Part shown: positions 313 to 11,311 of the stretch, piece after piece | How positions within the stretch are numbered: position 1 is the stretch's first letter | Layout of the letters: every line of letters starts with the position of its first letter | Sequence record: OR844650 | Strand: one strand, 5' to 3' | Origin: Escherichia phage ECO103 4-12-1 | DNA: 64,000 nucleotides | The notes under the pieces: model-generated | The model's input: the letters and a program-made list of their open reading frames with translations, nothing else | Told to the model about the DNA's origin: nothing | Databases searched by the model: none | Position numbers and translations under genes: made by a program

Positions 313-337
313 GGGTGACCGAAGTCAACCCTTTTTT
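313..337 (-). terminator. intrinsic terminator, variant of the recurring GGTTGAC-UUCG-GTCAGCC hairpin
   Basis: hairpin 313-331 followed on minus RNA by U run; overlaps stop of 325..738. Confidence 0.5.
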
Positions 338-738
338 CTTTCAATCAAACATAGTCTACCAGAATGTACCATGCGATGGTGATTAGAACAAAGAATCATA
401 CACTTTCGAATTTCATCTTTGATAGCATCTCGACTTTTACTGAACATAGAACTTGGTGTATGATCTTTGGTATTAGGGTCAAGATGGTGAAAGTCTAAAC
501 ATTCTGGATACTTCATCATACAAATACTACAACCATAAAATGATTTAACTCTGGTCATGAAATCTTTATTTTTTCTTTTGATTTCTTCAAGTTTTTTGAC
601 ATCAGTTTTTTTATTTCTGGTTTTCTTACTGGTAATATTACTACAACCTTTGCATGTATTTCTATGTTTCCCAGTATCTTTTCTTATACCAAATTCACTA
701 ATGTCTTTTTCAATATTACACGTGATACACTTCTTCAT
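325..738 (-). CDS. HNH endonuclease
   Basis: 137 aa; Cys-rich N-terminus and HNH core (FHHLDP ... CSNHH). Confidence 0.7.
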   Translation of the reverse strand: MKKCITCNIEKDISEFGIRKDTGKHRNTCKGCSNITSKKTRNKKTDVKKLEEIKRKNKDFMTRVKSFYGCSICMMKYPECLDFHHLDPNTKDHTPSSMFSKSRDAIKDEIRKCMILCSNHHRMVHSGRLCLIERKKG

Positions 739-750
739 TGTTTAATCCAT

Positions 751-1038
751 TTATTCAACAATCCCCAACTTCACAATCTCATACCCGTCCAGATAGCCGT
801 AGGAACACTCAGGTGTTTCATAAGATGAACCATCATGGATGCCTTGGCATTGACTTTTGGAATTCTCAAGCAATCGTTGCAGTACTGATACGTCATCAAG
901 AACGTAATACAAGTTAGCATATAGGTCCGTTACAATACAGTACTCCAACATATCAAATGTATCAATCGAAATTTCAACCTTAGCAAATCGTTTCTTTTCT
1001 TTATTATACAGTGCGTACATATTAATCTCCATAATCAA
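751..1038 (-). CDS. hypothetical protein (possibly C-terminal part of a disrupted kinase-like gene)
   Basis: 95 aa ORF overlapping end of 1022..1393 in another frame. Confidence 0.4.
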   Translation of the reverse strand: MIMEINMYALYNKEKKRFAKVEISIDTFDMLEYCIVTDLYANLYYVLDDVSVLQRLLENSKSQCQGIHDGSSYETPECSYGYLDGYEIVKLGIVE

Positions 1039-1393
1039 GTTTAACTAACTTACCACCCAGATACCCAAAGTTTTCTGGCTTCGCATCTGAATAGAAGAAG
1101 TCAGTACTTAACTCTGAATTCAATGCTAAAGCACACAACTCCACCCAAAATAAACCCCTATGTTGTACTGGCTTACAACGTTTCTGTATAGTTACTAGTC
1201 CAGTACATGATGACCACAACGTAGGGCAGATACCACTATTACTACGCTTGGAGTACTGCATCCACGAACGTTCATTGAGGTTAGCTATCATCCCTGTTAA
1301 GAATAGCTTCCAACTTTTAAAGGTTGGAATCTTGATAGCATATTCCCCAATGAGTATGACAGTTCGTGTTGCACCTTTCAAATCTATATTCAT
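1022..1393 (-). CDS. protein kinase-like fragment (N-lobe, catalytic loop, DYG)
   Basis: YAIK lysine motif, catalytic-loop-like DAKPEN, KLDYGD; ORF ends right after DYG. Confidence 0.5.
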   Translation of the reverse strand: MNIDLKGATRTVILIGEYAIKIPTFKSWKLFLTGMIANLNERSWMQYSKRSNSGICPTLWSSCTGLVTIQKRCKPVQHRGLFWVELCALALNSELSTDFFYSDAKPENFGYLGGKLVKLDYGD

Positions 1394-1402
1394 ATTTTTT
1401 AA

Positions 1403-1654
1403 TTAGAAGAACACAAACCAAGTCCAGAATAAATTCCACACTACAAATAAAGACATAGTGGTTTTATGTACAATATCAGCAGTACTGGTCCATCCTCCAC
1501 CGTGTCCTATTCCATTTATGAATAGAACTAAGAACAAGATACCATTTACTACAATAGTACATAGTAAGTACACAAACACATTCCATGCAAGTTCAGGGGA
1601 TACTAACGTAAATGGTAAAACAATTAGTAGTATTAGAACTAATAAAATTTTCAT
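1403..1654 (-). CDS. small membrane protein
   Basis: 83 aa, two long hydrophobic segments. Confidence 0.5.
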   Translation of the reverse strand: MKILLVLILLIVLPFTLVSPELAWNVFVYLLCTIVVNGILFLVLFINGIGHGGGWTSTADIVHKTTMSLFVVWNLFWTWFVFF

Positions 1655-1870
1655 TTATCGCCTCACTTAATTAACGTGACAATTAGTACGAATCAGATTC
1701 CCAGTACTCGATTGCTTCTTTCAGCAATTCTTTAGCACGTTGTTTTGCAATGCGAGCGGGTAACAGATATGTGTACATTAACTGTCGCTTCACTTCATTC
1801 AGTGAAAGCTGTTCATGGTACAGTGCATCCATCAGTCGATTACGAGTACGTAGTTTCATATAAGTTATCC

Positions 1871-2425
1871 TTATTTCAAAGAATCATAGTAAGCAGTGTC
1901 AAAGATTGGAGTCATAATAACATAGTCAATACGGTCAATGTAAGTTGAACTCCACATTTCTGGTTTGTCATATAACTGACGCTCGCGTTCATTCATACGA
2001 GTCAGTACTTCTTCCAATTTACTACGTGAATCCATCAATGTATTACTCGAACCATAAGTGAAGTACTCAGTCCAATGATATTCATATTCAGTACTGATAG
2101 ATTGAATAGTACCATCTTTGAAATGAGCTAAGGCATAACCTTTCTCTACAAAGTTATCAGGTGGAAGAACACCATCTGGATTAGTTTTCAAGGCTTGTGC
2201 TAACTTTTCTTTAATTTCAGTTAACGTGCATACTGAACGAATGTTCTTCAGGTTTGATACTTGAAAATCACTGTACTTTCCAAAGAAAAAGACACGCCAA
2301 TCTTTAGGTTCATTATCAGATACGGTAGCATTAGGATGATGGGCGAGTAAACGAAGAAGGCCAGCTTTATGACCGTTAATGTAGATTTCATGGATGTGGT
2401 TAGCAGTTTTCTTAAAAGTAATCAT
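1871..2425 (-). CDS. hypothetical protein
   Basis: 184 aa ORF, ATG start, downstream of consensus promoter. Confidence 0.55.
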   Translation of the reverse strand: MITFKKTANHIHEIYINGHKAGLLRLLAHHPNATVSDNEPKDWRVFFFGKYSDFQVSNLKNIRSVCTLTEIKEKLAQALKTNPDGVLPPDNFVEKGYALAHFKDGTIQSISTEYEYHWTEYFTYGSSNTLMDSRSKLEEVLTRMNERERQLYDKPEMWSSTYIDRIDYVIMTPIFDTAYYDSLK

Positions 2426-2473
2426 GGTAGTTCCTCGATTGTAGGGATGAGAAGTTCATCCCCCTTGATAAGC

Positions 2474-2501
2474 ATTATACAGTACTGAATGTGTTTGTCA
2501 A
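2474..2501 (-). promoter_or_regulatory. sigma70-type promoter TTGACA-16-TATAAT
   Basis: rc of 2474-2501 reads TTGACAaacacattcagtactgTATAAT. Confidence 0.6.
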
Positions 2502-2502
2502 C

Positions 2503-9629: not shown

Positions 9630-9834
9630 ATTTAACGTGTGGTTTATATAGCATAATTAACCCATTTTTAAGTACAATGATTGTTGCTCTGTTAGTAATC
9701 GAAACGTTTTTAATTATACTTTTTTTATATGTTTCAACATATTTCTCTTCATAATTTATACATTTAACATATTCTTTTTGTTTAGCACTTACAACAGTAC
9801 TGAATAATATCAGTACAAGTACTATATATTTCAT
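9613..9834 (-). CDS. small secreted protein
   Basis: signal-peptide-like MKYIVLVLILFSTVVSA. Confidence 0.5.
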   Translation of the reverse strand: MKYIVLVLILFSTVVSAKQKEYVKCINYEEKYVETYKKSIIKNVSITNRATIIVLKNGLIMLYKPHVKCEIIN

Positions 9835-9856
9835 TACTATACCTTATAAACAAAAA

Positions 9857-9876
9857 GGAATTCATTTAAGAATTCC
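9857..9876 (-). terminator. intrinsic terminator
   Basis: GGAATTC-loop-GAATTCC hairpin followed by U run on minus RNA. Confidence 0.5.
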
Positions 9877-9886
9877 TATTTTACAA

Positions 9887-10180
9887 TCATTTATCTAACA
9901 TACCATTGTGCAAACGTTCATATACTTCAGTTCGACGCAAATTAACAATATCTTCTGCGTATTTTAATGTAAATGCCCATGCTTTTGGATGTACGTTAAG
10001 CTTCATACGAATTCGATTTTTCATCAACTCTCCACTTAAACGAATAAATTCGTGTACACCACGACTACCGTATTCAGTAATTAAATCATTAATGTACATA
10101 TCACGAAGAGTTTCATCTGCACATTCTTTAACCATTTCTACGTCAGCGACGATGCTTTCATTAACTGAAGTACTGATCAT
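9887..10180 (-). CDS. hypothetical protein
   Basis: 97 aa ORF. Confidence 0.5.
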   Translation of the reverse strand: MISTSVNESIVADVEMVKECADETLRDMYINDLITEYGSRGVHEFIRLSGELMKNRIRMKLNVHPKAWAFTLKYAEDIVNLRRTEVYERLHNGMLDK

Positions 10181-10192
10181 TTTTAATTTACC

Positions 10193-10459
10193 TTATTTAA
10201 ATTCGACTGTAATTTTATCACCTTCAACTACGAACTTACAGTTGTAGCGACGTGCCATATCCATGTACATATGCTCAGAGTACCAAGGAACATCAATAAT
10301 CGGATGCTCTGCATATTGTAGAACTTCACGGTCGCCCACTGTAGTAATGATGAAAGGAATGTTCATCTCTCGTAAAAACAGTTCAGCACCAGGAGAACGA
10401 TTAATAAATTCAGTATCATTACGTAAAGTAAATCCATTATATTGTAATTTAAGCTTCAT
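10193..10459 (-). CDS. hypothetical protein
   Basis: 88 aa ORF. Confidence 0.5.
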   Translation of the reverse strand: MKLKLQYNGFTLRNDTEFINRSPGAELFLREMNIPFIITTVGDREVLQYAEHPIIDVPWYSEHMYMDMARRYNCKFVVEGDKITVEFK

Positions 10460-10473
10460 ATGTTATCCTCTAT

Positions 10474-10818
10474 TCAATACCATTCTTTAAAACCATTAAG
10501 TTCGGCTACGTGAGTGATTATAACACATATAACATTCAGGTCAAGTATAATTTGATCATAATTTAATTTTATACGATCATCATTATATGCTCTAAAAACT
10601 ACATCGTAATCAAAGAAATTTGCGTTTTCATCATTCATTGAAACGATTCGGTATCTACGTCTTCCATCTGTATTGAATATAGTTAAACACTGTTGAAACT
10701 TTCTCATTAACTGTTTAGATAGGATATTATAATATTCAATATCTTTTTGTGAATTACGTGGGTCATCAGGAAGATAGAATGAAACAAATTTCTTTAATTC
10801 TATTTGAGTTTTATCCAT
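10474..10818 (-). CDS. hypothetical protein
   Basis: 114 aa ORF. Confidence 0.5.
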   Translation of the reverse strand: MDKTQIELKKFVSFYLPDDPRNSQKDIEYYNILSKQLMRKFQQCLTIFNTDGRRRYRIVSMNDENANFFDYDVVFRAYNDDRIKLNYDQIILDLNVICVIITHVAELNGFKEWY

Positions 10819-11251
10819 ATATTACCTCATGTGTTTCTCTTTTACTTTGTCGGAACTCATCCTTTGCTTCCTTAACTGACATGATACGAACTAATTTAGC
10901 ACTACCGCAATAGTACTGAACCTGATTACGACCAATGTCTACATGGTGGTCTGGAACTTCATATACAGATATAGCAAACCCAGCACGATGCAATTTACCC
11001 AAGTCCATAGTGAAGAATCTGAACAAATCTTTCAAACTTTGACAGCCAAATACCCATCCACTTTTGATTGAATAGATCCCATCCTCAGTTGGTTCAGGTT
11101 GGAATTGAGAAGGTGTAGTCATAAGCAAACGGTCAAATCCATTTTTAGTACTGTATCTGGTTGAATACCGTGCAAACGGACCTACAGTTCGTGCAGGATC
11201 TAAGTTAGGTTCAATGTAACTAAATTTAAGTTCAAAACGATATACATACAT
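10811..11251 (-). CDS. hypothetical protein
   Basis: 146 aa ORF. Confidence 0.55.
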   Translation of the reverse strand: MYVYRFELKFSYIEPNLDPARTVGPFARYSTRYSTKNGFDRLLMTTPSQFQPEPTEDGIYSIKSGWVFGCQSLKDLFRFFTMDLGKLHRAGFAISVYEVPDHHVDIGRNQVQYYCGSAKLVRIMSVKEAKDEFRQSKRETHEVIYG

Positions 11252-11293
11252 AATTAAAATCCTCTAATTTATTAAGAGAATTATAACAAAAAA

Positions 11294-11311
11294 GGCTGAC
11301 CGAAGTCAACC
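11294..11311 (-). terminator. intrinsic terminator (same hairpin core)
   Basis: GGCTGACCGAAGTCAACC. Confidence 0.65.

Follow-up and report, generated by a model that had tools for sequence, protein, structure and literature searches.

The closest described counterparts of the element analyzed here are the PeSLs (promoter-early stem-loops) of T4-like phages, which are known from RB49/phi1, PST/T4 and nt-1/KVP40 (Arbiol et al. 2010, PMC2839356; Comeau et al. 2014, PMC4122927). A PeSL is an intergenic cassette in which a stem-loop is combined with an early promoter of sigma70 type, an AT-rich tract upstream and a Shine-Dalgarno (SD) sequence with ATG (PMC2839356; PMC4122927), and its subclasses include one where the stem-loop overlaps the -35 box (PMC2839356). 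Promoter and terminator activity have both been shown by lacZ fusions, the stem-loop being a strong terminator; PeSLs are concentrated in hyperplastic regions and at the boundaries of insertions and deletions (indels), and recombination has been mapped in the stem-loop (PMC2839356; PMC4122927). The present analysis concerns a hairpin element that is repeated six times in a 64 kb stretch (64,000 nucleotides, termed the window) of Escherichia phage ECO103 4-12-1 (sequence record OR844650), an Asteriusvirus jumbo phage of the PBECO4/121Q group. Each copy is probably a ~40-nt cassette of the PeSL type, i.e. a predicted terminator, promoter and linker in one.

The PeSL features that a sequence can display are all found in the window elements, and the PeSL concept would extend from T4-like phages to Rak2-like jumbo phages. 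Genes in this region are all on the minus strand, and each of the six copies is intergenic and in sense orientation, between the stop codon of one gene and the ribosome-binding site (RBS, of SD type) and ATG of the next. Predicted -35 and -10 boxes at a distance of ~17 nt are present in five of the six copies, a stable stem-loop holds the -35, and an AT-rich tract (an A-run) lies upstream of the -35 in all copies. As with PeSLs, the elements of the window and of the related phage 121Q cluster in regions of small, variable open reading frames (ORFs), at indel or replacement boundaries, and hybrid copies occur. The nt-1/KVP40 consensus, A3-4 G3-loop-C3 T3-4, also fits the window element. Copies of the form AAAAG-GGTTGAC-AGAT-GTCAGCC-CTTT...TATTAT, with an identical stem including its G.U wobble, are present in KVP40 (from an IMG/VR contig taken as KVP40).

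The window phage differs in being a ~350-kb Asteriusvirus (Rak2-like jumbo phage), which places it outside the lineages of the described PeSLs. The 121Q annotation includes homologues of T4-like gp17, gp20, gp23 and gp43, and this phage lies outside the T-even, pseudo-T-even and schizo-T-even groups. The overlap is complete here, with the -35 forming a stem arm and the U-run serving as spacer, and the loop is a UUCG tetraloop. Promoter and terminator activities are known from reporters in the T4-like phages, and the formation of mini-circles also belongs to the demonstrated PeSL properties, whereas the element in the window is predicted from sequence alone. No report of PeSLs in Rak2-like jumbo phages or Asteriusvirus was found in the literature searched, nor was an earlier description of the element sequence or of Asteriusvirus promoters and terminators.

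Structure of the repeated hairpin

Copies were searched in the window with <=3 mismatches. The sequence GGCTGACCGAAGTCAACC (plus strand) is found exactly at 5212, 6292, 7869 and 11294; the copy at 313 has one mismatch to it and the copy at 8052 has two, both in the loop (TTAG on the plus strand, UAAG on the transcript). The search at this threshold gave no further match in the 64 kb beyond these six, and 100 dinucleotide-preserving shuffles gave 0 matches to the 18-mer, i.e. the chance expectation is 0. All six copies lie within 11 kb (313-11311) and the other 53 kb of the window has none. The initial annotation, which described six near-identical copies of an 18-nt core, is thus correct, except that the last-but-one copy starts at 8052 and not at 8051.

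An A-run and a T-run lie on either side of all six copies, with the A-run (3-6 nt) directly 5′ of the stem. The conserved block that can be aligned is ~40 nt and the flanks do not align among the six copies. The consensus on the gene strand is AAAAG-GGTTGAC-TTCG-GTCAGCC-TTTTTT-G-T-TATAAT. Folding of the minus-strand RNA gives -14 to -17.7 kcal/mol for the six copies (z -3.9 to -5.6) with a UUCG or UAAG tetraloop, and agrees with the A-run and T-run flanks, GGUUGAC stem and UUCG loop originally proposed for the minus-strand transcript. In the five wobble-bearing copies the antisense fold loses 4-10 kcal/mol in stability, because the G.U wobble of the sense strand turns into a C.A mismatch. Copy 313 shows a difference of only 2.2 kcal/mol, and has a U/C mismatch or bulge at the position of the G.U wobble in the other copies.

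Other terminator-like hairpins of the window, at 9877, 18791, 25766, 29596, 37121, 43284, 48552, 51007, 55061, 57534 and 61591, are unrelated in sequence to the element, and the comparison supports what was noted at the outset about hairpins elsewhere in the window. The earlier reading of the copies as terminators also holds as a prediction, given the GC-clamped stem, stable tetraloop and U-run just past a stop codon in sense orientation. The record of phage G17 has the same sites annotated as ARNOLD terminators (-13.5 to -17 kcal/mol). An Rfam search of the whole window detected six tRNAs only, with no match at the elements.

The predicted overlaid promoter

The 5′ stem arm together with the first loop base reads TTGACT, which agrees with the sigma70 -35 consensus at five of six positions. 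All copies but one have a -10 box downstream of it with a spacer of 17-18 nt (TATTAT, TATGAT, TATACT, TATCAT and TATAAT), several copies have TG ahead of the -10, and an RBS and ATG are found ~25-45 nt downstream of each copy. The element is therefore a predicted ~40-nt composite of a terminator and an early promoter, which goes beyond the hairpin first described. The copies are as follows.

Copy 1, 300..337, minus strand: hairpin 337-307 (GGGUUGAC UUCG GUCACCC; one U bulged or mismatched), -16.0 kcal/mol, z -4.0; predicted promoter, minus strand, -35 TTGACT 328-323, spacer 17, -10 TATTAT 305-300.
Copy 2, 5198..5234, minus strand: hairpin 5234-5207, -17.4 kcal/mol; predicted promoter, minus strand, -35 TTGACT 5227-5222, spacer 18, TGn and -10 TATGAT 5203-5198.
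Copy 3, 6288..6313, minus strand: hairpin and 8-U run, -16.8 kcal/mol; no canonical -10 (TAAATA, spacer 19).
Copy 4 ("el2"), 7856..7888, minus strand: hairpin 7888-7867; -35 7884-7879, spacer 17, -10 TATACT 7861-7856.
Copy 5 ("el1", loop UAAG), 8038..8073, minus strand: hairpin 8073-8048, -17.7 kcal/mol; predicted promoter, minus strand, -35 8067-8062, spacer 18, -10 TATCAT 8043-8038.
Copy 6, 11280..11314, minus strand: hairpin 11314-11291; predicted promoter, minus strand, -35 11309-11304, spacer 18, TGn and -10 TATAAT 11285-11280, 11/12 promoter matches; precedes a 146-aa ORF at 10811-11251.

Copy 3 (at 6292) looks like a terminator-only or "half" element; its orthologue in 121Q has a perfect stem.

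A scan of IMG/VR with the exact gene-strand core gave 39 stretches with ~56 copies. The order A-run, hairpin, CTTTTTGCTATAAT-like -10, RBS and ATG is displayed by 54 of these, and the two others are in GC-rich contexts and look like chance matches. A degenerate scan with GGTTGAC-N4-GTCARCC-YTT, whose figures apply among the matches listed, shows TTCG as the commonest loop, followed by GAAA, GAGA, TTAG and AGAT. In this set TAnnnT is present at 16-18 nt in 110 of the 122 phage copies with the wobble stem. Spacing was analyzed in those phage copies of the stem GGTTGAC-N4-GTCARCC in which a TAnnnT hexamer resembles a -10 (162 distinct copies), again among the matches listed. The spacer is 17 nt in 95 copies and 18 nt in 65, and TG is present at -15/-14 in 93. 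The seventh nucleotide past the -10 is A in 114 copies and the sixth is a pyrimidine in 128, which is the signature of a sigma70 start site. As a separate observation, a leader sequence, ATCGAAAC, is common to 19 of the 162 copies at the predicted +1.

Proposed function

As RNA transcribed from the upstream gene, the element would be an intrinsic terminator made up of the A-run, a 7-bp GC-clamped stem, the C(UUCG)G loop and the U-run. As duplex DNA, it would be an early promoter for the host sigma70, where the 3′ arm and the T-run form the 17-18-nt spacer and are followed by (TG)nTATnAT. Transcription is predicted to start ~7 nt past the -10, with a short leader that carries the RBS, and the upstream A-run may serve as an UP-like element. 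Every small early gene would in this way be insulated and expressed on its own, with hardly any DNA between genes. The recurring 40 nt would also provide short patches of homology at which the phage recombination machinery may exchange, delete or insert the enclosed cassettes.

The near-identity of the copies would result from the overlaid promoter and terminator constraints, together with homogenisation and spread by recombination. The -35 would determine one position of the loop and five of the stem, and base pairing would then set the other arm. Since no tetraloop is more stable than C(UUCG)G, a UUCG loop would be favoured. What remains would largely be set by the G/C clamp, the TGnTATAAT box and the U-run in its second role as spacer. 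It had been suggested in the initial annotation that the copies are identical beyond what structure requires. The near-identity is real, but it can mostly be explained by the overlaid promoter, the UUCG loop and recombination.

This arrangement offers a sequence-level account of how a 350-kb phage may pack dozens of tiny early genes as insulated units. Annotations should record the sites both as terminators and as promoters. The 45-bp cassette could also be a compact natural terminator-promoter insulator for synthetic biology.

Cassette exchange among related phages

The window was compared with G17, 121Q, slurp01, UB, E9.1 and JP4, and the locus of two virion-protein genes was compared across 33 records. 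By megablast, PBECO4 is 100% identical over positions 7500-8500 and 121Q is 98.6% identical over 750-12000. The genes adjoining the elements are listed below; a Pfam search of the neighbouring proteins detected no families and the identities come mostly from PHROGs.

1..273, minus strand: 5′ part of an HNH-family endonuclease gene (phrog_559, 6.6e-10), downstream of the predicted promoter of copy 1.
328..738, minus strand: HNH endonuclease gene (phrog_2255, 1.4e-32), which abuts copy 1.
4531-5202, minus strand: T7 0.7-like protein kinase gene (phrog_15752, 1e-98), preceded by copy 2.
6323-7831, minus strand: gene of a 503-aa virion protein (PHROGs), preceded by copy 4.
7895..8008, minus strand: 37-aa hydrophobic ORF (MQGLKFVVAALIAAVLVGGVFYVV...), the lone gene of the cassette enclosed by copies 5 and 4.
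8080-8460, minus strand: gene of a 127-aa virion protein (PHROGs), followed by copy 5.

The locus between the two virion-protein genes has the same content in the window, PBECO4 and 121Q, namely el1 (with its UAAG loop), the 37-aa ORF and el2. In vB_Ec-M-J, three genes are found between el1 and el2, and seven further records match a span of the vB_Ec-M-J type of ~1.6 kb (known by match span alone). UE-S1 has one element only. Its left flank is that of el1, i.e. the end of the 127-aa gene, and on its right the promoter of el2 leads into the beginning of the 503-aa gene; this is the product expected of an exchange between el1 and el2. The record ph0011 matches over a short span of 820 bp that is similar to UE-S1 (here again known by match span alone). 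UB displays the el1 left flank, 5′ arm and UAAG loop; divergence begins within the 3′ arm, beyond which UB has another promoter and a 257-aa ORF. EC.P1 displays the el2 left flank and hairpin and diverges directly past the stem into a different gene. JNE01 has a degenerate el1.

Copy 313 shows a comparable pattern. Its upstream flank matches that of the relatives' copy upstream of denV and the downstream gene differs, since the relatives carry denV where the window has the left-edge HNH-family gene (1-273). Homology to the relatives stops at position 284, which is the end of the promoter part. The HNH gene at 328-738 is absent from 121Q and G17 and is mostly deleted in slurp01 and E9.1; the TGA stop codon of this upstream ORF falls within the TTGAC of the copy 1 -35.

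The chimeric copies (UB and EC.P1) and the hybrid copy (UE-S1) show the element to be a crossover point of gene-cassette exchange between related phages; we infer the direction of the events. They also show where such early-gene units are swapped between these phages. Botstein-Campbell linkers and lambdoid moron cassettes are alike in that short conserved regulatory sequences flank exchangeable modules, each equipped with a promoter and a terminator. The regulatory sequences of morons are not considered to be the means by which these move (PMC2839356), whereas in the present case the regulatory block itself is the crossover site.

Several features of these genes were noted apart from the exchange. 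The 127-aa protein is a paralogue of the N-terminal part of the 503-aa protein, both being assigned to phrog_16530 ("virion structural protein"), and their genes bracket a variable cassette within an early-type region. This recalls the T4 internal-protein loci, which have PeSL-like elements nearby according to Arbiol et al. (PMC2839356). The left-edge HNH-family gene has an internal direct repeat of 66 nt (1-66 versus 193-258, 92%).

Distribution in 121Q and other phages

A genome-wide count of the core, which the initial annotation had proposed as a check, was made on 121Q. It gave 12 copies at <=3 mismatches and a looser scan added a 13th at 151917; all 13 are on the coding strand. Nine copies are in a 14-kb region of small ORFs (98.7-112.7 kb) that matches the region studied here and has the T7 0.7-like kinase inside it. 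One of the nine is a truncated half element (109860) just past denV. The remaining four copies are at 144.9-153.8 kb, and three of these have a variant stem, GGGATTGAC...GTCAGTCCC, with a compensatory change of G-C to A-T. The complete 348-kb genome was scanned and no copy was found in the ~300 kb outside the two small-ORF regions. At 138556 and 149921 of 121Q there are hairpins of other sequence wrapped round a TTGAC -35, thus the design recurs beyond one sequence.

In the 144.9-153.8-kb region of 121Q (L143:44900-48960 and L144:1895-4080), each of the four copies is followed by a conserved non-coding unit of ~240 nt. This unit includes a CTAGCCCACAGGGTGCA hairpin along with a second promoter, of AGTACT type, and lies upstream of the next annotated gene. 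Rfam gave no match on this 121Q region. Leaders that resemble the unit trail the element in several IMG/VR jumbo-phage contigs (L002, L018 and L025).

The exact 18-mer is also found in other phages. Aeromonas phage 65 (L028), which is T4-like, and a Pectobacterium-phage-like contig of ~150 kb have it in the same promoter context. Brochothrix phage A9, of Herelleviridae type and with a Gram-positive host, has the exact 18-mer twice (L024 and L030), with the same T-run and -10. In A9, 32 consecutive nucleotides match a copy from a 345,809-bp IMG/VR jumbo-phage contig (L007). Either convergence on one optimum or horizontal spread may account for these copies.

With the UUCG loop, the stem that has the G.U wobble is about ten times commoner than the perfect stem (39 versus 5 IMG/VR stretches), and with other loops the ratio is about 2:1 among the matches listed. 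It is possible that the wobble reflects a unidirectional terminator, avoidance of cruciforms or common descent. The proposal that the wobble destroys an antisense -35 was not supported; antisense -10-like hexamers are present next to 26 of 117 wobble copies versus 16 of 45 perfect copies.

Evaluation of the proposed PeSL-type cassette and alternative explanations

Several observations weigh against the interpretation of the copies as PeSL-type cassettes. A usable -10 is lacking in copy 6292, and the U-run of copy 8052 (CUUUGUUG) is weak. The proposed mechanism does not account for the identical 32-nt version in A9 with its Gram-positive host, nor is the excess of the wobble stem over the perfect stem readily put down to functional constraint. 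With respect to recombination, the indels at 1394-1682 and 6603-6914 touch no element, thus the elements would be preferred and not exclusive crossover sites. Cassette boundaries are in any case expected at intergenic sites and the statistical association is weak; the case for recombination rests on the chimeric and hybrid copies.

In another explanation, rather unlikely as a whole, AAAG-GGTTGAC-UUCG-GUCAGCC-CUUUU-G-n-TATnAT would be a near-universal and optimal "stop-and-restart" module of large virulent phages. Phages that infect Enterobacteria, Vibrio, Aeromonas and the Gram-positive Brochothrix would have arrived at it by convergence or acquired it by transfer. Owing to its conserved G.U wobble the module would be strictly unidirectional or cruciform-proof. 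Because terminator and promoter overlap completely, a polymerase released at the U-run would immediately be recaptured by the promoter on which it sits, i.e. re-initiation would be coupled to termination.

It is improbable that the copies are plain intrinsic terminators that are alike through recent duplication, with a promoter likeness that is a by-product of AT-rich sequence past a TTGAC stem. An intrinsic terminator with a C(UUCG)G loop does have the same GC-clamped stem, tetraloop and U-run, with the stem lengthened by an A-run on its upstream side. The 18-mer has 50 hits in 596 Gb of bacterial genomes, and ~20 of these are plain A-run/hairpin/T-run terminators in a promoter-less context (Acinetobacter, Exiguobacterium, Vibrio and Bacteroidetes). 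Copy 6292, as mentioned, has no good -10, and a consensus promoter scan of the region found 83 matches versus 91.7 expected from shuffled sequence. However only 3 of the 50 bacterial hits have a properly spaced -10 and the other 47 have none downstream. In contrast, the phage copies almost always have a -10 (the 110 of 122 given above) and stand directly ahead of the RBS of the next gene. Since the -10 is found in most phage copies versus 3/50 of the bacterial ones, the coupling of hairpin and -10 is peculiar to phages and does not simply follow from AT-richness. The enrichment of TG at -15/-14, the pyrimidine-A start signature exactly 7 nt past the -10, the close RBS and ATG, and the stems of other sequence round the same -35 in 121Q (138556 and 149921) also argue against a plain terminator and are consistent with the composite cassette.

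An autonomous or endonuclease-mobilised mini-element, i.e. a repeat like a miniature inverted-repeat transposable element (MITE) or a recognition or insertion site of a homing endonuclease, is very improbable. Copy 313 is flanked by two HNH-family endonuclease genes, the gene content of the relatives differs exactly at the elements, and the exact core recurs in many unrelated phages, all of which would fit mobility. On the other hand, the other five copies have no endonuclease gene nearby, and every close relative examined has the orthologous copies in unchanged positions. The conserved block spans only ~40 nt and shows neither target-site duplications nor, apart from the hairpin, any terminal inverted repeats, and the hybrid copies are the outcome expected from homologous exchange between copies. 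A MITE or homing site was rejected on these grounds. Of the mobile mini-element suggested in the initial annotation there remains a passive crossover site in cassette exchange; terminal repeats, target duplications and coding capacity are lacking.

A sequence-specific site, either a UUCG hairpin recognised by an RNA-binding protein or RNase, as was also suggested at first, or a DNA site of an FNR/CRP-family regulator, can be given just as little probability. The FNR box is TTGAT-N4-ATCAA. The core TTGAC-N4-GTCAR is a near-palindrome of this form, and the wobble position is more conserved than pairing requires. In Rhodobacter, TTGACttcgGTCAA is among the listed FnrL sites (PMC2908626), which was counted for an FNR-type reading. 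The protein or RNase site does not agree with the free variation of the loop among copies and orthologues (UUCG, UAAG, UACG and UUCA; GAAA and AGAU elsewhere) while the stem and promoter boxes persist, nor with the lack of a matching Rfam family. An FNR/CRP operator was rejected as well: the half-sites are TTGAC/GTCAG, the favoured wobble variant (GTCAG) is further from the half-site than the rarer perfect variant, the palindrome is centred near -29 and not at an activating -41.5 or at -61.5, and the element occurs in phages of hosts as unlike as Brochothrix, Vibrio, Aeromonas and E. coli.

Other promoter, terminator and repeat features of the window

A second conserved family of promoters, free of hairpins, is found on the minus strand at 2470-2503, 13051-13084, 17364-17397, 32512-32552, 32972-33012 and 33381-33421. 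Its motif is TTGAC(A/T)...CAGTACTGTATAAT, where an AGTACT palindrome abuts an extended -10. AGTACT beside the -10 recurs in the 121Q hairpin-promoters at 137879, 138556 and 149921 and could be a phage-specific recognition element.

At 18791-18820 there is a strong A-run/hairpin/T-run terminator, GGTTGGC-TTAT-GCCAACC (-17.8 kcal/mol), which is a fully palindromic relative of the element. At 57507-57534 a strong terminator, likewise of A-run/hairpin/T-run type, is followed by a separate promoter, TTGACA-17-TACAAT. Here the stem-loop precedes the -35, as is classical for PeSLs.

The segments 31070-34103 (minus strand), 33565-33886 and 33728-35368 hold a cluster of six tRNA genes that are interleaved with a 161-nt tandem duplication. 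They are also interleaved with a family of small ORFs that have a common start region (CATCCATTCTTCATGTGTCAT, plus strand).

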